From IMG/VR virus record IMGVR_UViG_3300031999_000005, positions 1 to 64,000 of that record: a stretch of DNA of 64,000 nucleotides, one strand, 5' to 3'. Numbering within the stretch: the first letter of the stretch is position 1; the number at the start of each line of letters is the position of its first letter. Position numbers and translations under genes: made by a program. Positions 3,661 to 63,193 of this stretch are shown here, one piece after another. The stretch comes from a virus. Below the pieces are notes generated by a model, which saw only the letters and a program-made list of their open reading frames with translations, was not told the DNA's origin and ran no database searches.

Positions 3661-3903
3661 ATGTGGGACGCTAACCAGTGGCAGGAATTCTTCAACGGCC
3701 ACGGCAGCAATTTCGACAATCTGGCCGCGGCGCTGACCAAGGGTGAGATCGCCGATTCGGATGCCATCGTGGAATCCCTTGTCAGGCTTCAGGCCGGTAC
3801 CGTACTTCGGGTGGCCATGGAGAATACCTATACGATGGTCCGGCTGATGGGGAGAATGATCGGGGAGAAAACGGTGTTCCCGATTGGAGGGAAGCCGTCG
3901 TGA
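3661..3903 (+). CDS. Hypothetical protein
   Basis: SD gaggtg; ends in GGKPS like the next gene. Confidence 0.6.
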   Translation: MWDANQWQEFFNGHGSNFDNLAAALTKGEIADSDAIVESLVRLQAGTVLRVAMENTYTMVRLMGRMIGEKTVFPIGGKPS

Positions 3904-3912
3904 GAAAGGAGC

Positions 3913-4155
3913 GTGAGAACAATGAGAAAAACTAGAGCCTTTTTATCAATGGTCTGGTGGATGTGGGGTTACCATTTCCGTTCTAAGTACGGCAGTGCAG
4001 TACGCTCTGCGTGGTTTTCGGCCTTTGGGCAGAAGGCCATTGAAAATCCGAAGTTGTCCCCTCCACGATGGCTATACCGTTTGGTGACAGCGAAGCGCCA
4101 TCGCCCGTTTGCGACGTTTTCTTTGGATATCGGATTTGGAGGGAAACCGTCGTGA
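3913..4155 (+). CDS. Hypothetical protein
   Basis: SD aaaggag; ends in GGKPS. Confidence 0.5.
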   Translation: MRTMRKTRAFLSMVWWMWGYHFRSKYGSAVRSAWFSAFGQKAIENPKLSPPRWLYRLVTAKRHRPFATFSLDIGFGGKPS

Positions 4156-4165
4156 GGGATTTGTG

Positions 4166-4195
4166 TTGACATTTACACCGCTGGTGTAAAATACT
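4166..4195 (+). promoter_or_regulatory. Sigma70-like promoter with overlapping operator (TTTACACC-gct-GGTGTAAA)
   Basis: TTGACA 4166-4171; 8-bp inverted repeat 4172-4179/4183-4190; TAAAAT or AATACT as -10 candidates. Confidence 0.65.
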
Positions 4196-4220
4196 TGCGG
4201 TGCCATGAAACGAGGAAGCG

Positions 4221-4367
4221 ATGCGGGCAAGGAAAAAGACAATAACCCAACTGCACTGCCTGCGCTGCGGGGGCTGGTGGACACCCGAAACAGCCAACCC
4301 AAAACGCTGTGGCCGCTGTAAATCATGGTGTTGGAACAAGCCGAGGAAACCAAAGAAAGGGAAGTGA
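4221..4367 (+). CDS. 48-aa zinc-ribbon protein (not in ORF track)
   Basis: MRARKKTITQLHCLRCGGWWTPETANPKRCGRCKSWCWNKPRKPKKGK; two CxxC pairs; SD gagga; stop 1 nt before the initiator ATG. Confidence 0.7.
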   Translation: MRARKKTITQLHCLRCGGWWTPETANPKRCGRCKSWCWNKPRKPKKGK

Positions 4368-4368
4368 C

Positions 4369-5400
4369 ATGCCCCGGATGCGCACCATCAAACCAGAGTT
4401 TTACACGGATGAGAAAATCTGCCGGCTCTCCCATTCCGAGAGGCTACTATTCATCGGAATGTGGAATGCGGCCGACGATAACGGTGTTGGGCAAGCTGAC
4501 CCAACCCTTTTACGGGTAGCTATTTTCCCAAAAGACAAGCCAGTAAATGCGATCCTGCCAGAAGAAAACGTCGAAATTCTGCAAGAACCCGTTACAAAAG
4601 TGGAAAAAGGCGTTACAAAAGTGGAAAAAGGCGTTACTCGATCGGAAAAAGGCGTGAAAAAAGCGCCTGATCCACAGTGCAATCATGCCCCATGTGTCAC
4701 AGATGAAATAGTGGCAACTTGGGTGACATTCCTAGCAAAACTTCGGCTTATCCGCCTTTTTCAGTCCAAGGGAGAGATTTTGTACTACGTCACTAACTGG
4801 AAGAAACATCAGAGGATAGATCACCCTGGAAGGTCCCGATTCGTGGTTCCTGAGAAGTTTCTTCGGACGAGAGAATCTATCGAGGGCGAACGAGAGGGCG
4901 AACGAGAGGGCGAACGAGAGGGCGAACGAGAGCCATTCGCGCCTGATTTAAAGAGGATTAGAAGGGAAGGGATTAGAGGGGATTGTAAGGGGAGAACCGC
5001 CGGGGACACCAGCCCGGCAGAAGAAAATCTTTCTCAAGGCACCGCCACTACAGACCTCGACCTCGGCAGGGATGTGATCGCCTGGATGGAAGCAGTGGCG
5101 AACGGGCAGCGGTTTAGGAAGCACTGGCCGCATAAGGGCAAGGCCAGCCGGGGACCGACCGACAACATGAGGGATGCCCTCCGGGAGAAGGAGCGCACCA
5201 TCGGGGCCGAGAACTTCCGGCAGGCGTGGGTGGACTTCCTGCTCGGGGATGAATGCACCGCCCGGTGGCCGTACCGGAAGTTTATGGACACGGCGCTTGA
5301 TCGCCGGATGGAGGAATTGGTGGACGCCCAGGTGCAGGAAAGGCATGCTGCGGAGGTGGCTCAGGAGGCCGAGGAACGGAACTTGGGGTTGCCAGGGTGA
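4369..5400 (+). CDS. Phage replication initiator / replisome organiser
   Basis: N-terminal MPRMRTIKPEF...LLFIGMWNAADDNG and NWKKHQRI motifs, internal repeats, position upstream of primase-helicase. Confidence 0.8.
   Translation: MPRMRTIKPEFYTDEKICRLSHSERLLFIGMWNAADDNGVGQADPTLLRVAIFPKDKPVNAILPEENVEILQEPVTKVEKGVTKVEKGVTRSEKGVKKAPDPQCNHAPCVTDEIVATWVTFLAKLRLIRLFQSKGEILYYVTNWKKHQRIDHPGRSRFVVPEKFLRTRESIEGEREGEREGEREGEREPFAPDLKRIRREGIRGDCKGRTAGDTSPAEENLSQGTATTDLDLGRDVIAWMEAVANGQRFRKHWPHKGKASRGPTDNMRDALREKERTIGAENFRQAWVDFLLGDECTARWPYRKFMDTALDRRMEELVDAQVQERHAAEVAQEAEERNLGLPG
4590..4652 (+). repeat. 21-bp tandem repeat x3 (iteron candidate)
   Basis: CGTTACAAAAGTGGAAAAAGG twice exactly, third copy degenerate. 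Confidence 0.85.
4882..4929 (+). repeat. 12-bp tandem repeat x4
   Basis: GAGGGCGAACGA x4, encoding EGER repeats. Confidence 0.9.
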
Positions 5401-12988: not shown

Positions 12989-13275
12989 CCATGGAAGACC
13001 TGGACAGGACTTTGCTGAATGATCTGGTCTCGCGACCTGAAGCCCTGCAACACGTACTTGAACTGCTCCAGATGTCGGACGATCCTGATGCTGCGATGGT
13101 GTGCTTTGAGGCTTTGCACAAAGCCTGCAAAGAGAAAGGCATTGATTTTGGGATCGCCGTTGCCAAGTCTGTCAAGAACGTGAATGAGAAACTGTCGGCT
13201 TTGCGTAGCAAGGAACCGCTGAAGTTTGACGGTGGTAAAACCTTGCGATCTGCGATTATTTTTAGTAGCGGGTGA
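12982..13275 (+). CDS. Hypothetical protein (paralog of 12254-12547)
   Basis: SD aaggag; shared motifs. Confidence 0.65.
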   Translation: MLTMEDLDRTLLNDLVSRPEALQHVLELLQMSDDPDAAMVCFEALHKACKEKGIDFGIAVAKSVKNVNEKLSALRSKEPLKFDGGKTLRSAIIFSSG

Positions 13276-13354
13276 GGGACTCGGACCCTCCGGGGCACCC
13301 CGATCTAGGGCGGCTTCAGGTTTATAGGACCCGCCTGCACACCCGTGCTACCCG

Positions 13355-14083
13355 CTATTTGGAAGGAAAGAGACCACGTAACCAGGACCAGACCTTGGCG
13401 CCCTCACTCAACACCAGCCCACCAATCCGCACCGCAAACGAACCCGGCCGCGTGGCACGGTGAACAGCGTCCTTCAAATCAGTGCTCACCTGCACACCGT
13501 TGTCGGCAATCGTGATTCCGTCCCGGCTGATGGTTTCCAGGTGCTTGCTGCTTTCAGCGATGGCCTGCAATGCCACAGGGATGTTGGGATCGGCCAGCAC
13601 CTTCCGCAGGTCCTGAAGGGCAAGAGTGGCATTTTCGGCCAGGGGCTTCACATCCGCAGCAGTCTGTTGGATAGCCTTGGCTGAGGCATCGGAGACTTTG
13701 CCGATGTCGTTGGAAGTATTCAGCACGGATCGCGTTATGGCAGGAATCAGTGCCCCGTTGACGGCTTGGTCGGTATTCTCCACCAGTTGGGTCAATTGAG
13801 ATTCAAGCACGATCAGCTTGTCGAGCGATTCCTTGGTCTTCTGGAGGGATTCCGTGGTGGCCTTGGCTTGTACGACCGATGCCTTCTTCCATTCTTCGGT
13901 AGCTTTGCGCAGGTCTGCTGAGACTCCCCCAATGGATAACACCACGCGCCGAGTGTCGGTTAGGAGAGGGCGAAGACCTTCGGTGAGCGTCCAAGCCAGC
14001 CGAGCGATTGAAAGGCAAGTGAGAATCCCCGCGACCAAGAGCAGGTCGCGGAGGATTTCACGAAGAGATGGACGGATGTTCAC
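13355..14083 (-). CDS. Membrane-anchored coiled-coil protein in lysis cassette (spanin-like candidate)
   Basis: N-terminal TM segment, long heptad region, downstream of hydrolase and holin-like genes. Confidence 0.55.
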   Translation of the reverse strand: MNIRPSLREILRDLLLVAGILTCLSIARLAWTLTEGLRPLLTDTRRVVLSIGGVSADLRKATEEWKKASVVQAKATTESLQKTKESLDKLIVLESQLTQLVENTDQAVNGALIPAITRSVLNTSNDIGKVSDASAKAIQQTAADVKPLAENATLALQDLRKVLADPNIPVALQAIAESSKHLETISRDGITIADNGVQVSTDLKDAVHRATRPGSFAVRIGGLVLSEGAKVWSWLRGLFPSK

Positions 14084-34452: not shown

Positions 34453-37400
34453 TCATTCCATAGGCACCCCCCTTTCTACGGCCATGCTGCCGTCTGTTGC
34501 GATGGCCTCGGGAAACTGCGCGGTCCACGGACACCGGCCCTTTACCACCTCCAGCGACACCAAGCTAAGAGATGTGGTGTCCTCCATGTCGTGATTAAAG
34601 CCGCGATTCTCCCCGTGCTGGATCGCCTCTCTGACCGCCTCACCAGCAGATTCTTTCATCCGCAGTTCCAGGGGATCGTCGGCCTCGGGTTCACGAATGC
34701 CGAAAAACTCGTCTACCAGTTCAATGGACATCACGAGCTTCAATTCAACCTGCATCGGTGGTACCTCCCGCCCAAGCCAAACAAGGGCCTGGGGGCGGGG
34801 CGCTACGCTGCCCGCGGTAGGCCGATCTTGTTCCATGCCTCGTCGGGGACAAAGGCCACGCGGCTCTTGAGGATGTCCGCCAGTAATTCCGTCGGCTGCA
34901 CGATCCGCCGCACAGCCTCTTCTTTCACCACCACCCACCCCCCGGTACGGTAGGGGTTGGCGCCCTGCTCCCCCTCCCGGACGCTGATAAAGATAACCCC
35001 TTGCTGCATCAGTTCCTTGCACTTGTCGCATGGGCGCTTGTCCCATACCGCTGCGTGGGGAGCTTCTTGATCGCCTTGCAGTTGGCCGGCCAAGATGATC
35101 TCGTTCTTGGCCTCATTGCAAAAGAAGCACACTGGGATAGCTGGGTTAACACCGTGTTTCGGGCTAAGTTTTATGCTCACTTGATAGTACCTCCTGCCCG
35201 GCTCGACCTGGAGCCCGGCGCGAGCCACTACCCGCCTACCTGCCGCCCAAGTAGCCTGTCCTGGTCCCTTTGCCCTTGGTGAAGATTTGCTCCCCGTAAG
35301 TCCAGTAGAATTAACGCGTGACTGCCGTAAACCCCCTTTACCTGCCATAAACCCCCTTTATCCCTCCATAGCGCCACCTGGAATCCTCTGAGTTGGACAG
35401 CGTGATGTGCGGCGCTAGAAATCCTCCCGGCCCGTAAACCTCCCTGGAATCCGCTTCATCAACAAGCCGCGCCAGTTACCAAGCTCGTTTTCCCTGACTA
35501 TGACACGGCTATTGACTCTCTCAGCGAGCTGGCACAGGTGACGGTAGCCATAATCACCAGCAGATTTACGCGGGTACTTGCCGTTCACGGGCATACAAGA
35601 GCCGCGTGAGCATGTAGGATCATCCGGCCAGCCTGCCCGCCGATTGACAGCCATATTAACAAGCCATGCGGGATCGTCGGTATAGCCGACAGATTTACCG
35701 CTGGCACGCAATCCCTGACAGTGCTTCAGTAAAGCGATTGTCCCAAGTACCTGCGCATGGGTGTGCTTCACTTTGTAGTACCTCCCGCTCACTACTCCAT
35801 CCGGGAGCAGTCAGCGGGAGGGGCGACCCTATCGCGTTCGCCCCTTGGTGATTCGCGGGTCGCCCGCTCCCCTCTGGCCCGCTGCTGCGACAGTGGGCCG
35901 GAGGCAATGGCTGCGATTACCTGCGCAGATCGAATCCCTGTGTATGGCAGTAGCTGTCGTCAATGGCCGCAGGGAACGCGGCCCGCAACGCTGCGAGTAC
36001 CGCCCGGCCCTCATCGCTGTGGTCGATGACGCCGACTAGGTACTGCCCGCTACGACGATGCATATATCCCCAGGTACGCCTAGCATCGGTCTGCCCGAGC
36101 AAATATATATCGCGTCCGTCGATGGTCAGCCCGCCCTCGTTGTCGTGGCGCTCCTCCTCGTCACTCGATAGCTCGATCAGAGTGTAGCGCGAGTACCCGG
36201 CTGCGATAGCGCGGCTGATTAGTTTCGCTCGTTTCGTTCGCCCTATTTTTTGAGTGTCCATTAGCGTTTCCTCGTTTCGTGTCTGGCCCGCCAGCCTGCC
36301 GGGCTGGCGCGGGGCGCTACGTGTACTTGGCCACCTCGCTGGGCGTGCAACCATGTACCTCGATCAGGTGGTACGCGGAGCCGCGCCACGGTTGGCGGTG
36401 GTCGCAGAGAGGACATTGCCACTCGGTTTCCCCGAGTATGCGGCCCTCTGTCGCCAGGATCTGGATGTGTTCATTGGGATTGTCACACGTCAAAAACGAA
36501 GGGCACTGGTGTGTCATAATGTTTCTCCTCCCCGCGTTGAATCGCGGTGCCAGCGGTCGCAACCGCCCGCGTCGGGACTCAGGCCGCTATCCTTAGAAGA
36601 TGAGCAGGAGCCGGAAGGCACACTCCCCGGCCTGGTCCTCAGTGGCGCCCAGATATACCGCGATGTGAGAGCCGCCGCAGTAGACCCACCGGCCGGGAAA
36701 CGCATCATGGGCACGACTGGCAAGATTGCCGGGGTTGTCTTCGGGGCGTGCCGTGGTGCGGAGCCGGTCGTATTCGGCCTCTTCTGCCCGAGTGAGGCTG
36801 TCAAAGCCCTTGTCGGGTTCGCCTATCCATTGTTTATAGAGCATGTGATCCTTTCTGGTGCGTTAATTAACGCAGTTGCGGGCCTAAAAGCAAGCTGGTG
36901 GCCGCCAATTTGTGCGCTGGAATAAACCAGCGCAGGCCCAGGTTGCGCTCTTCCAGCATAGTCGCTCTTAGCGGTACCGCACGGGCATCGTTGGGTCGCC
37001 GAGTCCATGCCGGCACGAGTCTGTCAGTATCCCATATCGCGTACTTGCTGCGTACCCGCATTGCCAGTACCTCCCGCTCACGGTCAGAACCTCCAGGTCT
37101 GGCCGTGGTGCGCGGGGCGCTACGCGTTGCGCTTGCGCGGGGCTGGGATGATCCTGCCTCGCCGGATATCCTGTCGCCGCTCTATAGCGGCCTTCTCTGC
37201 ACGAGCTGCTATAGCATCCGCTCGGTCGGCTGCCTTGGCTTGTCCTCTCGTCATTGTCTCATCCTCCTCCTCCTGCCAGCGGGTTGCGCCGGCACGGGCG
37301 GCTGAACGCCTCCCATGCGCCGCCCGAATCCCCCGAGTCGGACGGCGGAGCGGGGCGCTACAAGGCCACAGAGACAACCGTGTCGGGCTGGCCTACGGGG

Positions 37401-45812: not shown

Positions 45813-46642
45813 TTGTCCTTATCGTTCTCCATGCAGTTATGTTTATGGTTCTCGGCTGGTTTACGGTGGGGTATCTGCGGAATCACCGGAAGTTGGCCGA
45901 AACCGCGCAGTTACTCCACCTACAGAAAGAGCACGAAAACTACCTGAAAGAGCAGATACGTGTACTGACGGGTAGATTGTGCAAGATGGCACCTTTCGGG
46001 AAGCCGGTTCTTGAGCGCTTGCTGAAAGAGGAACCGAGACCCATTACCCTGCATCACCTGAGCACTGGCCGATACGCACGCGGGGAGACATTAGAAATTG
46101 ATCCAGCAGAGATTATTGCGGCTGGCTGGATAGTCCCCCCGCACGAATATGAAGCGCTACGCCAGCATCTGAAGTGTGGCCTCCGGCAGCAACAATCTTT
46201 AGAACCGCGGGCACTGGACATCGGCTATGACGAATTGATGTTGAACAGAAAAATCACGGTGAACGGCCATCCGGTACTTGAAGGGTTGGAAGAACCAGCG
46301 AAGAAGGAGGAATATGACCAAAAAGGCGAAGAAGGATGACAGGCATCTGATCGGGCAGAAAACCCGAGAGGGGTACATCGTCAAAGACGGGAAGTTCTAC
46401 ATCTCCCTAAGCATGGCCTCCAGGATGAAGAACGTCATGGCGCAGGCGCTTGCACTTAAAAGATTGGCTAAGGAAACCAACACCTTTGTGGCGGCCCGCT
46501 ACACTGAACTGGAAAAGGAAGGCCAGCGTTTTTGGACGGACATCTGCGATGACCTTGGGATTGAGATAGAAGGGCATCGCTGGATGTTTGATCCCTACAA
46601 GGATTGCGTTTTCGAGGCCCTGCCCCCAGAGAAGAAACAGGA

Positions 46643-48406
46643 ATGAGTGTTGCTCTGCACATCGCGGAAGGACTGAACCTGCCGATTGATCTGGCAACGC
46701 AGACCATTCTCATTGTCGGCAAGCGCGGCAGTGGGAAGAGCACCACCTGCGTCCGTCTGGCCGAACAATTTTTCAAGGCGAAGATACCATTCGTCTCGAT
46801 AGACCCGACCGATACATGGTACGGCCTGAAGGCTTCCAAGGATGGAAAGGGACCTGGACTGGGCGTCTACATCTTTGGTGGCCGGCACGCTGATCTCCCA
46901 CTGGAGTCCACCGCAGGGGCGCTTGTAGCTGATGTGGTGGTGGATCATCGCATCTCCGCAGTTCTCTCCATTAAGCACTTCTCTGGCCGGGAGCGCGGTC
47001 GGTTTGTGTCGGACTTCGCTGACCGCCTCTACCACCGGAATACCGAACCTCTGCACCTCTTCTTGGAGGAAGCCCATGAAGTGGCACCTCAGCAACCGTT
47101 CAAGGGCGAAGAAGAAATGCTTGGGCGAGTCACGCGGATCTGGAAACTCGGTCGATCATCTGGCCTTGGTGGTTCAGCCATCACGCAGCGGCCAGCCTCG
47201 TTGTCGAAAAACATCACGACGCAGGCAGAGGTTCTAATAGTCCACCGGATTCTTGGGCCGCAGGATGTTGCGGCCATTCGGGAATGGATCAAATACCACG
47301 GGGAGAGCGACCAAGTTCTTTCACAACTGTCTGGATTGAAAACCGGTGAGGCATGGCTTTGGGCACCGGACTTCCCTGAAGGGTCTCCAATCGGACTTCG
47401 GCGGGTGAAAATCCTCGACCGCGAGACTTTCAATTCTTCGGCAACACCGAAGGCCGGGGAGCGCCAAACCGAACCGAAGGTGCTAGCCCCGGTTGATCTC
47501 GATGCCCTCCGTTCGAAGATGGCGGCTACCATTGAGCGTTCCAAGGCCGACGATCCGAAGGAACTGCGGAAGAAACTTGCGGCCAAGGATGCGGAGATTC
47601 GGAAGTTAACCGCTGGCATCAAGCCGGTCGATCCCGAAGCGCTGGAGCGTGCCCGCCAGGAAGGCGCGGACAATGCGGCCCGGCAGTTTCGCGGAGAGAC
47701 CAAGAAACTCCAGGACAAGATAAAGGATACGGCGCAATTGCTGGCTGGCATCCGGGGGAGTTTCGATAAAGCCTGTGAGATTTTGAATGAGGCGTGCCTG
47801 GGAGAAATCAAGGCTGTGCCGTTCACTGAGGTAATGAGTCGGCCGAACCAGAGATTCAAGGCACCCGCTTTCAGACCCACGCCCCCCATCCTGCCGCGCA
47901 GGAACAAAGTGGTCGTTGAGGATGACGGGAATCTGACCGGCCCGGAGCAACGCATTCTGGACGCTATTGCTTGGATGGAAAGTATTGGAGTGAATCAGCC
48001 AGAGCAACCTGCCGTGGCATTCTTGGCGGGATACAGGATTGGCGGGGGTGCCTGGAATAATCCTCGCGGTCGATTGCGAACCAGGGGACTGGTTGAATAC
48101 GCCGGGAATTGCGTGCTACTGACTGAGGCTGGCCGTGCCCTTGCCAACAAGCCTGATACACCGGCTACCACTGAGGGTCTGCACGCTGCCATCATGGCCC
48201 GGCTTCGCGGCCCTGAGCAGAAAATCCTGCGCGTGATCTTGGAGCGGTATCCTCACAGTATCTCGAACGAGGAATGCGCGGCAGAGGCGGGGTACTCCCT
48301 GGGTGGTGCTTACAATAATCCCCGCGGTCGACTGCGGACACTGGGATTGATTGAATACCCTAGCGGCGGGATGCTGCGGGCGCGGGGCATCCTTTTCTTG
48401 GAGTGA
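46643..48406 (+). CDS. HerA/DUF87-like ATPase with coiled coil and two C-terminal winged-helix-like repeats
   Basis: GKRGSGKS, IDP, EEAH, GRSSGLG, TQRPA; duplicated GPEQ.IL...NNPRGRLRT.GL.EY. Confidence 0.85.
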   Translation: MSVALHIAEGLNLPIDLATQTILIVGKRGSGKSTTCVRLAEQFFKAKIPFVSIDPTDTWYGLKASKDGKGPGLGVYIFGGRHADLPLESTAGALVADVVVDHRISAVLSIKHFSGRERGRFVSDFADRLYHRNTEPLHLFLEEAHEVAPQQPFKGEEEMLGRVTRIWKLGRSSGLGGSAITQRPASLSKNITTQAEVLIVHRILGPQDVAAIREWIKYHGESDQVLSQLSGLKTGEAWLWAPDFPEGSPIGLRRVKILDRETFNSSATPKAGERQTEPKVLAPVDLDALRSKMAATIERSKADDPKELRKKLAAKDAEIRKLTAGIKPVDPEALERARQEGADNAARQFRGETKKLQDKIKDTAQLLAGIRGSFDKACEILNEACLGEIKAVPFTEVMSRPNQRFKAPAFRPTPPILPRRNKVVVEDDGNLTGPEQRILDAIAWMESIGVNQPEQPAVAFLAGYRIGGGAWNNPRGRLRTRGLVEYAGNCVLLTEAGRALANKPDTPATTEGLHAAIMARLRGPEQKILRVILERYPHSISNEECAAEAGYSLGGAYNNPRGRLRTLGLIEYPSGGMLRARGILFLE

Positions 48407-48409
48407 ACC

Positions 48410-48646
48410 ATGATCGAATGCACCCTTCACGATTTTCACCAATGGCTGGATGAACAGGGTTGGCCGAGTGAAATCATTCTGCATCCAGACGACTTCACGC
48501 TGCTACAAGCCCGCTTTGGACCCGGAGACCGCAAACTGCTGTTCGATGACTGGAGAAACTATTTTATCTGTGGGCCTACGCGCATTCGACCGGGTGCCTC
48601 CAACAAGAAGTTTCTGGACGTGAGCAAGGAGAGACTGTTCAAGTGA
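48410..48646 (+). CDS. Hypothetical protein
   Basis: Operon-contiguous; PSEIILHPDDF motif. Confidence 0.55.
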   Translation: MIECTLHDFHQWLDEQGWPSEIILHPDDFTLLQARFGPGDRKLLFDDWRNYFICGPTRIRPGASNKKFLDVSKERLFK

Positions 48647-49497
48647 AGCGCCAACATCCAAATTTGGACATGCCGAAGGGCAAGCGCAAGTTCCACTGGA
48701 AGAGAGTCAACTACGCCTTGTTCGTCACGATTCGCAAGACGCCGAAGTTGGAAGCCTCTGCCGTCTACGGTCGTGCCATCGGGTTGAGGAAGGACGGCCA
48801 GACGTTTTCTGCGCTGGCCGCGTTGCCCTGGATCATCCCAAGGAAATTCGACTGGCGCCCGATAGCCAAGGCCCGCCTGGATTCTTTTCTTCTCGCAGAT
48901 TGCCGCTGCAAATCGGAGGGTTCCGAAGTCACCACCTGCAAGATGCACCACGGGATACGAGGAAAGTGGTTGGCCGAAGACGCCAAGAGAACCAAAGAAC
49001 TGCCAGCACAGCCAAATCTCTCGCTTGATTCTGGGCCGGTGTCTGGCTTCAGGGTGATGAACAGAAACTATCCCTGGTGCGTGATGATCCTGGAGAAGAA
49101 CGAGTGGTTCTGCGACATCTGCAAGGCCGCACACCCAGCGCATGAGGACAACCCGAGCTACCGGAATCAATTCATCCTGAGACATTCCCATTGCGGATTT
49201 CCGGCGGCGGGATATGCAGAATCGCTGCGGAAGTGCAATCTCAGCACATGGGCAGACGCAGCGGCTGAGGCCAGGAAGCGCATAGATGAAGCTAGAAGGC
49301 GGGCAGACAAGGTTGAGGGAGAAGTGCAAGGTTATCGTCTCTTGGAGGTAGCCTTCAAAGAAATCTCTGCCGGTCGGTGCAATCCATACCTTCCTGAGCG
49401 AATGTCCTTTGAGGAAGTGGTCCAGCATGCTGTAGGGGAAGGGGTGGCGATTCCCGAATCGCTACGCCCGCAACTGTTGGAGGGAAAGAGCCGATGA
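48643..49497 (+). CDS. Hypothetical protein
   Basis: Long ORF overlapping neighbours at both ends. Confidence 0.55.
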   Translation: MKRQHPNLDMPKGKRKFHWKRVNYALFVTIRKTPKLEASAVYGRAIGLRKDGQTFSALAALPWIIPRKFDWRPIAKARLDSFLLADCRCKSEGSEVTTCKMHHGIRGKWLAEDAKRTKELPAQPNLSLDSGPVSGFRVMNRNYPWCVMILEKNEWFCDICKAAHPAHEDNPSYRNQFILRHSHCGFPAAGYAESLRKCNLSTWADAAAEARKRIDEARRRADKVEGEVQGYRLLEVAFKEISAGRCNPYLPERMSFEEVVQHAVGEGVAIPESLRPQLLEGKSR

Positions 49498-49919
49498 ACA
49501 GGCGCGAATTCTTCAAGAGCCTTGCCCTTGGTGCTGCGGTGATTGCCATTCCGGGCGCGGCACTGAAGGTGCTTGCTCAGAATCCAGGCAACCCGGCTGC
49601 TACCGCTGCCATCAAGACACAGGCGCCGCTTACGCTTCGTGCCCTCCAGAAAGCATTCTTTGAGTGCTCGGTAGGCAAGGAATGCCCTTCGCAGATTTTT
49701 CTCAGTTCCTCTTGCTGGATCAAATTCGAGGAAATGATGCGCAACCACGATGAACGGCAATTATTCGTCAATCCTAAACGCCCGATCCAGAATCTCACTT
49801 TCCATGGTGCCGATGTCTGCCCCGATCCTGACACCCCGGACGACATGATGGTCTTCATCAACGAAGAACATCCTGATAATCCCAGTCTGAACAAGCGTTT
49901 CCGTCTGGACGAAATCTGA
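49494..49919 (+). CDS. Twin-arginine-like leader fused to a major-capsid-like fragment
   Basis: MNRREFFKSLALGAA; body aligns by eye with the capsid region LSLKEVQTAF...WFLN. Confidence 0.7.
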   Translation: MNRREFFKSLALGAAVIAIPGAALKVLAQNPGNPAATAAIKTQAPLTLRALQKAFFECSVGKECPSQIFLSSSCWIKFEEMMRNHDERQLFVNPKRPIQNLTFHGADVCPDPDTPDDMMVFINEEHPDNPSLNKRFRLDEI

Positions 49920-50490
49920 GATTGACAGGTTCGATGTTTTACAAGTATGCTGACAATCGCCGCAGCAGAAAGGAACTGACAAATGCCATACCCGAACGAA
50001 AGTCCATTGGTTCTTCTCGACTCCCTGGTTTGCAGCATGTGCTTGCATATCATGCGCCGCGTGTTGGAGATCGATGCGAATGGGAAGTTCAAGAAAGCCA
50101 CCCACTACTGCGACACCTGCAAGTACGGATACGAAATAACCAGGGATAAGGCCCTGCATCCAGCCAATGGCCGTGATGTGCCGTGGGTTGCCGAAGTGAA
50201 GGATGGTGCCAAGTGATTCGTGACCCGCTCGGAAGAATTTTCAAGCCCGGCCAGAAGGTCATTCTCGCCAAGGGCATCCTGCCGGAGATGATCTTGGCGC
50301 AGGTGATGGAGGTCAACGACAACATCCTCACCACGGGGCCAAACCAGCAGCAGCCGCGGACGGTGGTGTTTGGTCTCGGCAGTTTCACTGTGGCCTTGGG
50401 TGGTCCCGGAGATGTAGTCAACGTTTCGATCATCGTCCAGGAAGCTGACGAGAAGATCCCGCAGATCGAAGGGGAAAGCAAGGTGAACTG

Positions 50491-51365: not shown

Positions 51366-51442
51366 CGGGGCGTAGCGCAGCCTGGTAGCGCGCTTGCCTT
51401 GGGCGCCGGTAATCCCCGGTTCAAATCCGGGCGCCCCGACCA
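51366..51442 (+). tRNA. tRNA-Pro(TGG)
   Basis: Cloverleaf CGGGGCG/CGCCCCG, D arm GCGC, anticodon loop CTTGGGC, GGTTCAAATCC, encoded CCA. Confidence 0.93.
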
Positions 51443-51521: not shown

Positions 51522-52082
51522 ATGCCGCCCAACGTCCTTGCCTCGCCTGTCCACCGATTTCGCTATGCTCGGGCACGAAGCGGGATGACCATTGAGGACA
51601 TCGCCGCACAGGATCATGTGTCCGTCGATACGGTCAGAACCTCCATCAAGGCGGTCGAAATTCGCAAGCAACTGTGCAGCATTCATGAGGTAGAGACGGC
51701 GGAGGCGCAATTGCTGCTCGACACGATTCCCTTGCAACAGAAGGCTCTTACAGAGGCCCTGGTTGCCACGCAGATCGTCATGGGAACGAAGGGAAGGGTC
51801 AAAGAGGTTCCTGACCACACCACCCGGATGCGCGCTGTTGACGTGCTGACACAGAAATCCGCATCGCTCCGACCGCAGGTAAAGATCGCCCCGACCACTC
51901 AGGTGAACGTCAACACCGGGAACCAAACACTGGTAAACGGCATGACGTTTGAAGACCGGGTGCGGCAGATCGTGGAAAAACGCCGAGAAGCTGAGACCGT
52001 GCCTGCGCTGGCCGCCCCAGTTGATTTGGGCGGCTACATCGAGGCTGAACCCGAAGGGGATGTCGATGGCGATAAGCCGTAA
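51522..52082 (+). CDS. Putative terminase small subunit
   Basis: N-terminal HTH, directly upstream of and overlapping TerL; TTGACT-18-CACAAT promoter at 51482-51511. Confidence 0.6.
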   Translation: MPPNVLASPVHRFRYARARSGMTIEDIAAQDHVSVDTVRTSIKAVEIRKQLCSIHEVETAEAQLLLDTIPLQQKALTEALVATQIVMGTKGRVKEVPDHTTRMRAVDVLTQKSASLRPQVKIAPTTQVNVNTGNQTLVNGMTFEDRVRQIVEKRREAETVPALAAPVDLGGYIEAEPEGDVDGDKP

Positions 52083-55000
52083 AGACCCCTACCTGAACGA
52101 AATCCTCGAAATCCTGGACATGATCTACGATCAGGCAGGGAATGACATCGCTCGGGCCTATTCGAGCCTCGGCACGCACGAACTGAAATTCATCGAGGAA
52201 GAAACCACCCGTTGCGCTGACTGGCGGTACTACGTCGAAAATTATCACATCATCCGCACCGTGGACGGGAATCTTCAGACGCTCTATCCACTGTGGGACA
52301 GCCAGGAAATCTTTTATGAACCGGTGCTTCTAGCGCAGAGAGCACACCTGCCGGTTCGGATAATTACGCTCAAGGCAAGGCGACTCGGCCTCTCGACAGA
52401 ATGTCAATCGCTGATCTTCCATAAAACCATCTTCACCCATAATTGGGATTCGCTGATCGTTGCGCAGGACCCTGACCAGACAGCGTACCTTTTTGAGATG
52501 AGCCGGCTCGCCTACGAGAAATTGCCCTGGTGGATGCGGCCTGAATCGCGGTATGACGTGAAGGGCACCCAATTGGTGTTTGACCGCAAGGACCCGAAGG
52601 AACGTTTGCTGCATCCGGGTTTGCGCTCACAGATCATGGTTGCCTCAGCTAATAAAATGTCAGGAATTTCTGTGGGTAAGGCGCTCATGTCAACGCACCT
52701 GTGCCTGACTAAAGAAAACTATGTGTTGCGACAGGATGGGAAGATAACCCCGATCTCAGAAATAAAGGTTGGTGACAGGGTTGAATCCCGTTGCGGACCT
52801 GTCCCGGTGTCTTTCGTGTCTTTCAGGGAATCAGATGCTAATGTCAGTGTCACGCCTTGGTGCAATTCTGCATTTCCGATCATCGGCACACCGAACCACC
52901 GCATTCTCTGTGGGGAACTCGTCAAGAAGCAAATTGCCGGAAAGCGGGGACCTGCAATAAGGAATATCCGGTGGGTAGAACTGGGCAAGGTGTCGCTGAA
53001 AGATTGTCTAGTGATTCCAGTAAAGAAAATTTCTGACACACGAGAGTTGCCTGTGGCACGTTTGCCCGAGTCATTCCGTCGAAAACATGGAGGAGGCTCG
53101 ATCCCGCTCCCGATCAGTCCACAGAAAACCAGAGAATGGGGATTTGCCATTGGCCTTTATCTGGCCGAGGGAAGCATCGAAAAGGCAAAAGTCATAATCA
53201 GTCTCGACAAAAAAGAGAATGGGTTGGCTAGTCGCTTTTCAAGGGCAATCGGAGTCGCTGAAGGGAAAGTGGGAAAGTCCCGAAAAACAAGGACCAGGGT
53301 GCATCGTTTCTATAATGCTGCGTTGGCTACGTGGCTTGCTGACAATTTCGGGCATCATGGAGAAAAGATCATCCCCGATTGGGCATGGGAGACGGGCCGC
53401 GACTTTTTGCTGGGGATTATCGAAGGTCTGATGCTCGGAGACGGCCACTTCCCGCTCAAAAATAGAGAGTGCATATTTTGCTCCATCTGTCCACAGTTGT
53501 CGATCCGCCTGCGAGACGCCGTAGCGTCATTGGGGATCGGTTACGGTTCGCTGTATCTCAGGAAAGCTGGAATTCGATACGGGAGAAACTGCAAGAATGC
53601 TTGGTTGACCCATTTTGCGATGAAAACAAATGATTCGCTTCGCCTACTCTTTGGGATCAAGCCATCTAGAAAGGTCCAGAGACATCATGGTAAGCACTGG
53701 TATTATTCCTTGAACAGATCAGAGATTTACGTGCGTCTGCGAAAAATAGAAGAGGTCCTCGGTGATACGGTCTATGACATTGAGGTCGATTCCCCAAACC
53801 ACGAATTTTTGCTTCCTGGAGCCGTTACACACAATTCAGAATTGAGCCTCTGGCCTGATCCCAAGAAGCTGGCCGAGTATCTTTTCCCGACGATGGAGAG
53901 CAACCAGGGTTTGTACTTCATGGAATCCACGTCGCGTGGTCGGCATGGATTCTGGCCGCGATTCTGGAAAAAATCGGTGCGGCGGGAAACTAACTGGACC
54001 CCTGTTTTTATTGAGTCATTCCGGGTGAGGAAGTATTCGATCCCAATTGACGCAGGTGAGAATTTCGTGCTGACGGCTGAAGAAAAGGCCATCCGCGACA
54101 AGGTTTTGAGGCAGCGGAAAGTCGAAATCCCCCTGGAGCATTTCAAGTGGCGCCGGAAGACAATCCAGGACTTTGTTGCGGCAAATGGCGATGATTCGAT
54201 GTACTACCAGGAATTCCCGGCCACGAGTCCTTCAGAATCATTCGTGGGCACTGGCTTGTGTGCGTTTGACAAGAAAAAACTTCAGCGGATCAGGGAAGAA
54301 ACGTGTTGCGATCCAATCTGGTTTGGTGAGATTCGCCTGGAAAAGAAAAAGCCGCGAGCCATCCTGTACGAATCTGCCAAGGCTGCACATATTCCTCCGC
54401 AGACAGTGGAAGGTGGTCGGTTATACGTTTGGGAGATGCCCGAGCCGAAGGAAATCTACTATGTGTCAGGTGACGTGGCCGAAGGAATCATCGGAGGTAA
54501 TTTCTCGGATGCGCAGGTGCTTCGCAAGGGGAAGGGACCGGCTCCAGATGTGCAGGTAGCCGAATGGCACGGGTGGATCAGCCCAGAGGAATTCGCTGAA
54601 GTTTTGGCCGCCCTGGGGATGCTCTACAACAATGCTGAAATAGCGCCGGAAACCAACGCGAAGTGTGGTGGACTGATGATCGGGCACCTCTCGCGGGTGG
54701 TTGAATACGAGAACATTTTCCGGTGGAAGCATTACGACAAAGTGAAAAACCAGCGGACGAACTACCTTGGTTGGGCCACGAACACCAAGAGCCGAGCGGA
54801 CATCATTGCTAAGGGAACCCGTGCGGTCAGAGAGGGCCTAGTGATAATCCGCAGCGAGGAGTTGGTCGAGGAAATGTTCGATTTCGCCAGCACTGATGAC
54901 TCGGTGAAGATCGAGGGCCAGGACAACTGGGATGATCGTGTGATGAGTTTCCTAATTGGCTATTTCTGTGCGCACGATTCAGACGAATACACGGACTACG

Positions 55001-55191
55001 GAAAAAGCAGCGAACCAGAAAAGGACAGAGGGCGAGATTTCTACAACACCGAATCCTGTGCGCCTTGTACCAATCGACCACCGAGCCAGACGGTCTTCCA
55101 CGATCAAAAAATGCCATCGGACATGAGCCTGTACTTGGCGAATGCACCGATGCCTGAAGGAGATGACAACGAACTGTGGAAGAGGTTATAA
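52066..55191 (+). CDS. terL: Terminase large subunit with intein
   Basis: LKARRLGLST (Walker A), HL|SE (Walker B split by intein), ESTS, QEFP, DVAEG, APETN, DDRVMS. Confidence 0.92.
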   Translation: MAISRKDPYLNEILEILDMIYDQAGNDIARAYSSLGTHELKFIEEETTRCADWRYYVENYHIIRTVDGNLQTLYPLWDSQEIFYEPVLLAQRAHLPVRIITLKARRLGLSTECQSLIFHKTIFTHNWDSLIVAQDPDQTAYLFEMSRLAYEKLPWWMRPESRYDVKGTQLVFDRKDPKERLLHPGLRSQIMVASANKMSGISVGKALMSTHLCLTKENYVLRQDGKITPISEIKVGDRVESRCGPVPVSFVSFRESDANVSVTPWCNSAFPIIGTPNHRILCGELVKKQIAGKRGPAIRNIRWVELGKVSLKDCLVIPVKKISDTRELPVARLPESFRRKHGGGSIPLPISPQKTREWGFAIGLYLAEGSIEKAKVIISLDKKENGLASRFSRAIGVAEGKVGKSRKTRTRVHRFYNAALATWLADNFGHHGEKIIPDWAWETGRDFLLGIIEGLMLGDGHFPLKNRECIFCSICPQLSIRLRDAVASLGIGYGSLYLRKAGIRYGRNCKNAWLTHFAMKTNDSLRLLFGIKPSRKVQRHHGKHWYYSLNRSEIYVRLRKIEEVLGDTVYDIEVDSPNHEFLLPGAVTHNSELSLWPDPKKLAEYLFPTMESNQGLYFMESTSRGRHGFWPRFWKKSVRRETNWTPVFIESFRVRKYSIPIDAGENFVLTAEEKAIRDKVLRQRKVEIPLEHFKWRRKTIQDFVAANGDDSMYYQEFPATSPSESFVGTGLCAFDKKKLQRIREETCCDPIWFGEIRLEKKKPRAILYESAKAAHIPPQTVEGGRLYVWEMPEPKEIYYVSGDVAEGIIGGNFSDAQVLRKGKGPAPDVQVAEWHGWISPEEFAEVLAALGMLYNNAEIAPETNAKCGGLMIGHLSRVVEYENIFRWKHYDKVKNQRTNYLGWATNTKSRADIIAKGTRAVREGLVIIRSEELVEEMFDFASTDDSVKIEGQDNWDDRVMSFLIGYFCAHDSDEYTDYGKSSEPEKDRGRDFYNTESCAPCTNRPPSQTVFHDQKMPSDMSLYLANAPMPEGDDNELWKRL
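52702..53835 (+). mobile_element. Intein with LAGLIDADG homing endonuclease (378 aa)
   Basis: Starts CLTKEN, block B TPNH, GLYLAEG and GLMLGDG, VYDIEV...THN followed by Ser+1. Confidence 0.95.
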
Positions 55192-60317: not shown

Positions 60318-62482
60318 ATGGCCTTCCCGGTGGGAGGGCCAACATACCAAATGGCACTCACTTGGGGTGATTTAACTTCAAAAACCAATAGCCATATCGT
60401 GCCACGCTTGATTGACACGATCTACCGCACGTCCGCTCTGCTGACGCGCATCAGGACGCGCAACACCGAGCGGTTCGAAGGCGGGGATTCTCTCAAGGTT
60501 CCCATCATGCACGCCGAACTGAAGGGCGGTCCCTTCACTCGCGGCGGCACCTTCGATTGCTCGTATGTCGAGTCCGATACGGCCCTCAATTTCTTGATGA
60601 AGCCGTATTACGTCAACGTTTCCATCTACGGCCTGGACTGTGCGCTGAACCGCGGTCCCGAAGCCGCAATGACGATCATTGACTCGAAGATGGCGAACGC
60701 CGGCGGGAAGATGGCGAAGTTGCTGGCAACCGATATGTACCTGGACGGCCAGGGCACCGCTTCTTCGGCCATCGCATTGGATGGATTTTCCGGAGCCCTA
60801 GACGATGGAAGTAATTTTCCAGTTTACGGCCAAATCACCCGGACGGATCTTTCCGCCACGGCGAACACCGGCATCAACGCCTACTACAAGGTGGTGGCCA
60901 CGCTGTCCCTGAAGGAAGTGCAGACGGCCTTCGGAAGCACGTGGTTCGGCGGAGAACACGCGGATCTGCTCACCACCACCCAGGCCGTGTGGGACATCTG
61001 GTGGAACAAACTGCAACCGCAACAGCGGTTCAACGAAGAGTCCAGCGATGTGGGCAAAATCGGCTTTCAATCGTTCAGGTACAATTCCGCTCAGGTAGTG
61101 GTTGACCAGCATTGCCCAGCGGGCAAACTCTGGTTCCTGAACATGAAGTACGTGAACCTGTACCTGAGCACGATGCCGCAATTCCAGTTCGGGTTCACAG
61201 GATCAACTTTCGGTCCCCTTTCAAGCACCGTCAGCGAAGGAATGACGGTAAACTAGGAAGGAAAATTCTGCTATATGCTGGGACAACAGGTCATGCCGAG
61301 CTACTTACAAGGTAAAAAGGCGACGGATAATCCTGTCAATCAGCAAGGAAGAATCGTTCAAATTGCTCGTCTCGCAGGAATCTTTGATTGCGAGGGATGC
61401 TTCTACCTGAACCGCTATGGTCGGTCTCATGATTGCTATTCCGTGGTTGCGAGAGTCAGCAACTCGAATATGCGGATCATCGAGGAAGTTTGCTCTACAC
61501 TGTCGGTTCTGGGTTTCAAGTACAACAGAACTGATGGTCTGCCGACAGGAATGGGCGGTCGGGTGTCGGAAATTAGGCTGCATGGGACAAAGAGGGCGAA
61601 GCCGCTTATCGAACTCATCGCCCCGTATCTGTCAGCCAAATCCCGCGTTACTGACCTTCTGAAGATGTTTTGGGAACGCAGAGATTCAGTAGCGTATGGG
61701 GCATCCTACACAGAAGAAGATTTCAGAATTCACCGGGCTGTCCGGGCAGTCAATTCCAACGGCACAGCAAAGGACATACCCGTTGGAGATCATCTGGAAT
61801 TGGTTGGACCGTCGAGAGTAGCACGGCTTGGAGAGGTGGAAGCGAAAGCCAAACTTGCAGCCATCGTGGAATGCGATGGTTCTCTCGGCCTGACTAATCT
61901 GAGGAATGGGGAGAACTACATGCCAGCGATTTACATGGTGAACACGAACGAATCTTTGCTTGCAGAGATTCGTCAATCACTGGCTATGCTTGGAATTCCC
62001 TACTACTTCCAGATGAGACCGCCACGAGGCATTTCGATCAAGGCCATCGGTGAATTCCACATTCAGGGAATGAAGCGTGCCAAGCGGTTCCTGGATGCCA
62101 TAGGTGATTATTTCGTAGCCTACGCGGAACGGGCAAAATTGATTCGGCAATTCATCAATCGTCGGCTTTCTCTCCCGGCCAACTATCCGTATTCGGAAGT
62201 TGAGCGGGAGATCAAGAGGGCCTTGGACGAAGAGAAACCGAAGAGCGATTCCCTTCAACGACTGCACGCAGAACCGGGCAAGTCCCGGATGATACAGTCT
62301 GTTCTGCATGGAGACATGCAGACGGCGGCAGAAATGACCGCCGCGCTCGCGTAAGCGAGAGGTAACAGCAAGGGAAGGAAAATCAATTCTCGATTGATGT
62401 GGCCGGGCAGTACCTGTTCCTTGGCAACATCGTCGTAACCGCGCCTCGGCTGATGGCGCAGATAAGTGGAATAACTGGTTGA
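60318..62482 (+). CDS. Major capsid protein, spliced: join(60318..61203,62373..62482); alternative start 60351
   Basis: Splicing gives FGFTG-W-KENQFSIDVAGQYLFLGNIVVTAPRLMAQISGITG; located after scaffold. Confidence 0.88.
61204..62372 (+). mobile_element. Group I intron
   Basis: P1 GGAU/GUCC with U.G; P ATGCTGGGA, Q AATCAGCAAGG, R TCAACGACT, S GATACAGTC; terminal G. Confidence 0.9.
61275..62354 (+). CDS. Intron-encoded double-motif LAGLIDADG homing endonuclease (start uncertain)
   Basis: LAGIFDCEG and LAAIVECDG. Confidence 0.9.
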   Translation: MLGQQVMPSYLQGKKATDNPVNQQGRIVQIARLAGIFDCEGCFYLNRYGRSHDCYSVVARVSNSNMRIIEEVCSTLSVLGFKYNRTDGLPTGMGGRVSEIRLHGTKRAKPLIELIAPYLSAKSRVTDLLKMFWERRDSVAYGASYTEEDFRIHRAVRAVNSNGTAKDIPVGDHLELVGPSRVARLGEVEAKAKLAAIVECDGSLGLTNLRNGENYMPAIYMVNTNESLLAEIRQSLAMLGIPYYFQMRPPRGISIKAIGEFHIQGMKRAKRFLDAIGDYFVAYAERAKLIRQFINRRLSLPANYPYSEVEREIKRALDEEKPKSDSLQRLHAEPGKSRMIQSVLHGDMQTAAEMTAALA

Positions 62483-62512: not shown

Positions 62513-63193
62513 ATGGCAGCTTGCTTAACACTGGGTCAAGCCGGGGTATATAGAGTGATGGCGGAACTCTTGCTCCGCGGTCACAGGCCGTACATTCCGG
62601 CAGTGGACGATCATGGTGTTGATTTGGCTCTTTCCACTGGAGTCAGAATACAGGTCAAGACGGCTCGTCTCCACACCAGGAAGAATTGGCCGAGAAAGCC
62701 AATCTACCATCTGACATTTGGATGGGCACAGATAGGCCGGACGCACATTCCTATCCGCAGAAAGAAGAATTACAGTTCAGAATGCGATTTTCTCATCATC
62801 TACGGTGTTGATGAAAACCGCTTTTGGATTGTTCCTAGCTTCCTGTTGGACGGGAGAACATGCCTGATGCTTGGACCCCGATGCCGAGTTGTTCGTGGGC
62901 AGATAGAGGAACTTCTCGATGTCGGGGTGACGAGAATCGAGGCAGCGAGGAAACTCGGCGTTGATCGGCATACCATCACAAGGCGGTTGAAGGGCGAGGG
63001 AACGAAAAATGGCGGCTTTGTGAGATCAGTCAGAATGTGCGAAGACCAATGGGGACTTTTGGGTTCTCCAGTTTTCGCTCCATTCGTGGGGAACCCGCCC
63101 AGTCTTCCAGGCGGTGAGACGGCCCAACAGAAAACAAGAGAGGAAACACAATGTCAGTCGCTGTCACTAACAACAATCTGCCATACCTCCTGA
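62513..63193 (+). CDS. Free-standing PD-(D/E)XK endonuclease with HTH
   Basis: GQAG...AELLLRG...P.VDDHGVDL...RIQVKT...CDF. Confidence 0.85.
   Translation: MAACLTLGQAGVYRVMAELLLRGHRPYIPAVDDHGVDLALSTGVRIQVKTARLHTRKNWPRKPIYHLTFGWAQIGRTHIPIRRKKNYSSECDFLIIYGVDENRFWIVPSFLLDGRTCLMLGPRCRVVRGQIEELLDVGVTRIEAARKLGVDRHTITRRLKGEGTKNGGFVRSVRMCEDQWGLLGSPVFAPFVGNPPSLPGGETAQQKTREETQCQSLSLTTICHTS

Follow-up and report, generated by a model that had tools for sequence, protein, structure and literature searches.

In HK97-type capsids, neighboring subunits touch one another round the capsomer axes through their A-domains. Capsid paralogues with roles in assembly are known as well, such as the vertex protein gp24 of phage T4 and the size-redirecting protein Ccm of SaPIbov5. 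The Tat pathway, for its part, exports compact, folded domains. A-domains also occur on their own in the Family 4 'A-domain encapsulins' (PF08967/DUF1884), which are cellular and leaderless, are encoded beside enzyme genes and have a speculative function (Andreas & Giessen 2021, PMC8346489). Hosts of the Family 4 encapsulins are hyperthermophilic archaea and Rhodothermus (PMC8346489). Capsid proteins can moreover set off bacterial immunity: CapRel is triggered by capsid protein (PMC9712102), and capsid-triggered immunity is described for Avs7/Dsr1 (bioRxiv 10.64898/2026.01.04.697583). At the envelope, T4 Imm and Sp and the host HXS system block phage DNA entry in the periplasm (PMC13128918 for HXS). 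A literature search gave no paper on Tat leaders fused to capsid-derived proteins. Here, we describe a phage gene whose product, P0001, carries a predicted Tat-type leader in front of a stand-alone A-domain related to the capsid protein of its own phage group.

The gene, its setting and its leader

The window, i.e., the whole stretch of DNA that was analysed, comprises the first 64 kb of a 103,756-bp IMG/VR virus record that is rated 88% complete. The target gene lies between unannotated small ORFs, with the terminase genes downstream. The features of the gene and its immediate neighbors are as follows:

48643-49497, plus strand: upstream ORF of 284 aa, whose TGA overlaps the target ATG (ATGA)
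49479-49484, plus strand: Shine-Dalgarno-like GGAGGG, 9-10 nt 5' of the ATG, read from the sequence
49494-49919, plus strand: target ORF (P0001), 141 codons plus stop, encoding the precursor protein
49494-49577, plus strand: residues 1-28, predicted Tat-type signal peptide (rule-based scan)
49578-49625, plus strand: residues 29-44, Pro/Ala-rich variable linker (alignment variability, low pLDDT)
49626-49916, plus strand: residues 45-141, predicted autonomous A-domain module (hhalign, AlphaFold model, VIA-align, Atlas)
49983-50216: leaderless Zn-ribbon-like ORF directly 3' of the target gene

P0001 begins with MNRREFFK, which confirms the start given in the original prediction, MNRREFFKSLALGAA, and the ATGA overlap makes translational coupling of the 284-aa ORF and the target gene possible. 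Since the only other Met residues of P0001 are at positions 80-81, the leader cannot be bypassed by an internal start. Support for minus-strand ORFs across 49494-49919 is absent, and promoters and terminators were predicted no more often than in shuffled sequences. A location of the gene in a lysis cassette was considered and rejected, as the lysozyme-like ORF noticed by eye in the related genome G005 had no Pfam support; the phage's deformylase is located elsewhere. The Zn-ribbon-like ORF is syntenic and kept in many relatives, the version in G005 being longer and having a C-terminal hydrophobic segment.

Several further genes of the region deserve mention in their own right. Upstream of the target's gene cluster, 46604-48406 encodes a 600-aa HerA/FtsK-like ATPase that matches Pfam HerA_C and the ATPase region of PHROG 'terminase large subunit'. 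Its tail has two C-terminal repeats that are similar by eye (GGAWNNPRGRLRT and GGAYNNPRGRLRT), and residues 482-535 give a weak Pfam HTH_67 match below the cut-off. The gene for tRNA-Pro(TGG) (51366-51442) is situated past the target's cluster and ahead of the packaging genes; tRNA-Ile(TAT) is found at 13265-13356 on the minus strand. The 1080-aa ORF at 51949-55191 is the large terminase, with PHROG terminase matches over residues 82-206 and 753-1005. The two matched parts are separated by an insert of several hundred residues that begins with Cys and ends in ...HN/S (by eye). The insert looks like an intein; searched against Pfam, it gave no match at E <= 0.001.

The leader of P0001 consists of NRREFFK at residues 2-8, an h-region of 16 uncharged residues ending in P-G (mean Kyte-Doolittle 2.0) and a c-region with Lys25 followed by VLA|Q, where a cut is predicted after residue 28 (Ala28). 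These features were assessed with our own rule-based scan, not with TatP or SignalP. The predicted mature protein has 113 aa, a mass of 12.9 kDa and a pI of 5.3. The motif xRRxF(x)K is present at residues 3-5 in all 17 full-length family members, together with a moderately hydrophobic h-region of 12-20 uncharged residues, a basic residue in the c-region and AxA-like sites. Scored by itself, P0001 lies below the curated cut-offs of the Tat HMMs (14.3 vs 22.7 bits; E 0.042 with Pfam TAT_signal, PF10518). TIGR01409 matches 6 of 12 family members, with E values down to 2e-4. The PDB sequence matches of the family profile are solely the Tat signals of CueO, OpgD, and NapA. Scans of named genomes likewise returned leader matches only: in MAGs of the PVC group, a sulfatase and a flavodoxin-like protein carry near-identical leaders. 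The profile search with A1, an alignment of the small family built from the relatives found by exhaustive phmmer, was swamped by signal-peptide words. The claim of a twin-arginine-like leader is supported across the family, and the P0001 leader is predicted to be of the canonical Tat type, as supported by its motif, h-region, and putative cleavage site. From the combination of leader, linker and compact, autonomously foldable domain, a passenger type suited to Tat rather than to Sec, we infer export and cleavage of P0001.

Relationship of the module to the capsid protein

The original prediction drew a parallel between the body of P0001 and the phage's own capsid protein and proposed a repurposed capsid A-domain. 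The capsid string quoted there sits in ORF 60318-61256, which matches PHROG 9953 'major head protein' (E 3e-33), has hundreds of metagenomic relatives of ~320 aa and is 22-27% identical to annotated capsids of Stenotrophomonas, Bradyrhizobium, Myxococcus (Mx8), and Tunturiibacter phages. The parts of the capsid gene are the following:

60318-61202, plus strand: exon 1 of the major capsid protein gene, ending in ...FGFTG (PHROG 9953, tblastn)
60891-61151, plus strand: capsid residues 192-278, the part homologous to P0001 (hhalign)
62375-62479, plus strand: C-terminal exon of 35 residues (tblastn with the C-termini of intact relatives, E 1.7e-13)

The gene is split directly after ...FGFTG by an intervening sequence of ~1.17 kb (61203-62374), inside which ORF 61275-62354 encodes a LAGLIDADG/HNH-type endonuclease. 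The layout resembles that of a homing endonuclease carried in a group I intron; in a search with Rfam, no group I intron model matched the intervening sequence. Nuclease and homing-type genes are unusually dense near the head genes, and another is the PD-(D/E)XK endonuclease-like ORF at 62513-63193, directly 3' of the last capsid exon (Pfam E 3e-5, just under the cut-off).

When P0001 was compared directly with its own capsid protein, BLASTP gave a marginal result (E 0.004, 23% identity), and the match to PHROG 9953 was of the same order (E 0.0038). The pairwise alignment thus fell short as a proof of the parallel, and it was the profile-profile alignment that carried it. Aligned by hhalign with A2, an alignment of 29 capsids, A1 reached Prob 99.0, E 8.6e-18 and a score of 115.8 over 82 columns, whereas 30 column shuffles and a reversal scored <=20.1. 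In this alignment, A1 columns 46-127 (P0001 residues ~45-127) lie on capsid residues 192-278, which is the register originally drawn; a genome-level search puts the match at 60864-61151. Searched against 80 related IMG/VR loci, the HMM of the small family matches all of their capsid genes (E 1e-6 to 8e-18). Of 12 family members, 4 are in turn matched by the NCBIfam podovirus capsid model capsid_maj_Podo (NF033394), the lowest E value being 1.4e-6. As judged from these profiles, it is confirmed that the likeness of the module to the capsid is far beyond chance. The body of P0001 is about 23-29% identical to present-day capsids, the best match being the capsid of the related locus L059 (29%). 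The phage's own capsid is no closer than the others, which points to an old paralogue and not to a recent duplication.

The AlphaFold2 model calculated from A1 has a floppy N-terminus, and residues 45-137 are mostly at pLDDT >90. Aligned by VIA-align, model residues 44-140 superimpose on HK97 gp5 253-383 with a Z score of 9.2 (rmsd 2.9, 85 residues). The scores were 10.3 for family 2 encapsulins (93 residues), 7.7 for the SU10 capsid and also 7.7 for the stand-alone 94-residue PF0899 (PDB 2PK8, 85 residues aligned). In total, 124 chains were matched at Z >= 5, and SaPIbov5 Ccm (PDB 7RWZ) is among the matches. The top Foldseek matches in the PDB are nearly all HK97-fold capsids and encapsulins, and a structure search of the ESM Atlas returned capsid clusters that matched over residues 42-139. 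The fold claim is based on the VIA-align Z scores and on the match lists dominated by capsids, as Foldseek gave no match at E <= 0.001 in the PDB or BFVD. Homology and fold together make the proposal of a repurposed A-domain a sound one.

The 97-aa module corresponds to about residues 192-278 of the capsid plus a closing strand, and the N-arm, E-loop, and P-domain are absent. It thereby lacks the complete HK97 fold of ~320 aa (N-arm, E-loop, P-domain with spine helix, and A-domain), and the body of P0001 cannot make the usual type of shell subunit. A family-specific loop, FINExHPxDPRLN, replaces the P-domain excursion of the capsid, and the last strand closes the sheet. The model therefore supports a whole, autonomous A-domain and no random piece, so that the word 'fragment' in the original prediction has to be given up. 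The proposal that the family tail 'DPRLN' equals the C-terminal 'APRLM' strand of the capsid was rejected, no significant alternative alignment being found, and the capsid strand ancestral to the module's last strand is not identifiable from sequence alone. For the capsid protein, AlphaFold gave a poor model (pLDDT 49), from which the order of secondary-structure elements alone was taken. A complex prediction with four copies of residues 43-141 had an ipSAE of 0.00, which is uninformative either way on self-association.

In BFVD, small uncharacterised phage proteins of 95-160 aa appear among the capsid matches at weak E values, for example, A0A6J7VQR9, A0A6J5RQH3, H9YS96, and one Flavobacterium phage protein. 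Stand-alone A-domain-like proteins may be commoner in phages.

Distribution of the family and a second capsid-like family

An exhaustive phmmer search yielded 11 relatives of 85-183 aa. The family includes 17 full-length members at 25-67% identity, which all keep the leader, so that the ORF is conserved and intact beyond this one phage. In A1, the RR leader is conserved, the linker varies, and the module of about 90 residues is again conserved. The target gene is found in none of five complete relatives (97-110 kb), in which the capsid gene alone matches, and in none of the 80 capsid loci. On its two sides, the 284-aa ORF and the Zn-ribbon ORF are conserved and syntenic, the former also in relatives without the target gene, and the slot between them varies in content, being occupied by a peptide deformylase in G005. 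These comparisons support the view that the target gene is probably an accessory gene that occurs sporadically in a variable slot.

Other family members lie on contigs of 63-77 kb, and two short contigs from Hainich groundwater (L089 and L090) share one and the same member. The genes on the latter two (880-1330 in L089, 1852-2300 in L090) differ by one base in a C-run, by which the L090 frame is shifted over the last ~35 codons; at about 1-3x coverage, this is probably an assembly error. Clusters in the Atlas have 70-112 members of 139-148 aa and are mostly labelled Acidobacteriota. They are a lead to a family larger than the one found, and their labels are a weak hint of an Acidobacteriota host. 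IMG/VR was scanned with P0001, P0131, and P0133 without a match, and cultured phages yielded no relative.

By scanning the relatives for RR leaders, a second family was identified, here called family B, whose body resembles the P-hairpin and then the E-loop region of the capsid. Five copies have RR leaders (in L020, L041, L043, G001, and G002) and three do not (the tandem copy in L041 and copies in G004 and G001). The positions are:

L041, ~470-1462: family B
L043, ~3810-4338: family B
L020, ~4225-4677: family B
G001, 20225-19620 and 2298-2017, minus strand: family B
G002, 5612-5091, minus strand: family B
G004, 36925-37275: family B

Family B residues 42-69 match capsid residues 284-311 (the FGFTGWK...QNTDD hairpin; E 1.2e-5, Prob 81%), and residues 82-113 match capsid residues 57-86 (E 2.8e-4, Prob 41%). 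The two capsid-like pieces are short and their order is permuted relative to the capsid; a derivation of family B from the capsid is thus suggestive and not proven. The genes mostly adjoin the portal gene within the head module (five relatives).

Further small ORFs with RR leaders were noticed in L090 (462-737), L056 (4513-4830), and G000 (102726-103034, beyond 64 kb), as well as in G001 (11393, 10076, and 32869, all on the minus strand). Zn-ribbon-like Cys pairs occur in the bodies of two, the others being orphans; compared with larger proteins, these further RR-leader ORFs showed no similarity.

Possible roles and comparison with known systems

The reading that we favor, with a probability for the whole chain that we place slightly short of even, is that P0001 would be a Tat-exported accessory binding module acting in the cell envelope. 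The small domain would fold in the cytoplasm, the host Tat translocase would carry the folded domain across the inner membrane, the leader would be cut after Ala28, and the acidic domain of about 12.9 kDa would then act in the envelope as a binding module. Most plausibly, it would be an accessory factor with a protective role at the envelope, to the benefit of the infected cell or of the progeny: it would keep related phages out or cover up a component of the envelope. This role is the least certain part of the proposal. The envelope reading agrees with the accessory nature of the gene, the conserved leader and the compact, foldable body. Against it stand the score of P0001 alone, which is below the curated Tat HMM cut-offs, and the need to assume that the host has a Tat system. 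What weighs most against it is that the natural partners of a capsid domain (capsid subunits, scaffold, host sensors) are cytoplasmic, which leaves its recruitment unexplained, and that family B, by its place in the head module, hints at assembly instead.

In a different explanation, the module would be an immune bait. It would mimic the capsid surface recognised by sensors, and the leader would tether the bait, with anything bound to it, at the Tat receptor in the membrane or co-export the bound factor by 'hitchhiking', blunting the alarm ahead of real capsid synthesis. Capsid proteins often trigger bacterial immunity (CapRel, Avs7/Dsr1), the gene is located upstream of the packaging and head genes, and a bait would explain why pieces of the own capsid were recruited repeatedly, in two families of the phage group. 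We nevertheless consider this unlikely. A cleavable export signal takes the bait out of the compartment of the known sensors, so that a decoy fits awkwardly, and many sensors are far too big for Tat. Moreover, the literature searched held no precedent for a Tat-coupled decoy.

A role in head assembly seems quite unlikely. Here, an uncleaved leader would anchor the A-domain on the membrane, where it would bind capsid or portal subunits and nucleate or modulate assembly, or poison that of competing related phages. That A-domains form subunit contacts round the capsomer axes and that some capsid paralogues take part in assembly (T4 gp24, SaPIbov5 Ccm) is in line with such a function, and family B, with its leaderless copies and its place beside the portal gene in five relatives, hints at a role linked to head assembly. 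Yet the five complete relatives without the target gene assemble heads, and because they do without it, the gene is not a core assembly factor. The leader furthermore has AxA-type cleavage sites, a Tat-translocated passenger would be on the wrong side of the membrane, and the module shares only about 23-29% of its residues with present-day capsids.

It is very improbable that the precursor merely jams the host Tat receptor, for example, stopping the export of cell-wall amidases, with its capsid origin incidental. The strong conservation of the leader and the RR-leader mini-ORFs of relatives with unrelated bodies would suit a plug, but a mere plug has no need of a well-conserved, well-folded body, and the literature searched held no precedent. 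Hardly credible, finally, is a functionless, decaying remnant of a partial capsid-gene duplication with a leader-like N-terminus by chance, as the sporadic distribution and the 1-nt frameshift of L090 relative to L089 (in a C-run at about 3x coverage and probably an assembly error) are set against ORFs intact in 17 full-length members down to 25% identity with leader and structural core kept, a confident compact model, precise domain boundaries and a conserved family-specific loop.

A broader idea, 'bait and export', would see mini-proteins made of a Tat leader and a capsid piece as a general phage strategy for displaying pieces of the own head, here a whole A-domain and in relatives a P-hairpin plus E-loop. 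The leader would carry, tether or co-export the factor bound, for example, capsid-sensing immune proteins. We hold this generalization to be doubtful and give it a low probability. As the design of an RR leader with a head-protein piece recurs in a second family of the phage group, a shared selective reason is likely, and its discovery could uncover a new level of conflict between phages and their hosts or among phages.

P0001 presents a natural case of a capsid domain that was excised along the domain borders and fitted with a cellular address for export. As far as can be told from its sequence, it joins two known kinds, the stand-alone A-domain and the Tat substrate, in a phage, and no published description of this design was found. 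Like T4 Imm/Sp and HXS, it may be a small protein exported to the envelope; this likeness is functional speculation only, since these have no sequence or fold relation to P0001, HxsA being a host repeat protein matured by an rSAM enzyme. T4 gp24 and SaPIbov5 Ccm are similar in that a second, diverged capsid copy is kept for a separate job. They are, however, full HK97 folds that are built into the shell and have no export signal, whereas P0001 is an A-domain only, with a leader.

With the Tat signal peptides of CueO, OpgD, and NapA, P0001 shares RRxFxK, an h-region of mild hydrophobicity and a c-region with a basic residue and AxA. The usual Tat passengers are cofactor enzymes, while the passenger of P0001, whose export is predicted, is a virus capsid domain. 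The closest counterparts of its body are the Family 4 encapsulins, which also have ~100 residues and consist of the A-domain alone (2PK8, Z 7.7 over 85/94 residues), although a Pfam search with P0001 at E up to 1 gave TAT_signal and a chance match only and no PF08967. The Family 4 proteins are cellular, are encoded in a two-gene operon downstream of an enzyme and have no signal peptide; P0001 is phage-encoded, has a predicted Tat-type leader and, unlike them, comes demonstrably from the phage group's own capsid family. Stand-alone A-domains had previously been represented by these cellular encapsulins of unknown function only, and a version that is encoded by a phage and tagged with a leader shows the A-domain to be an evolutionary module in its own right.
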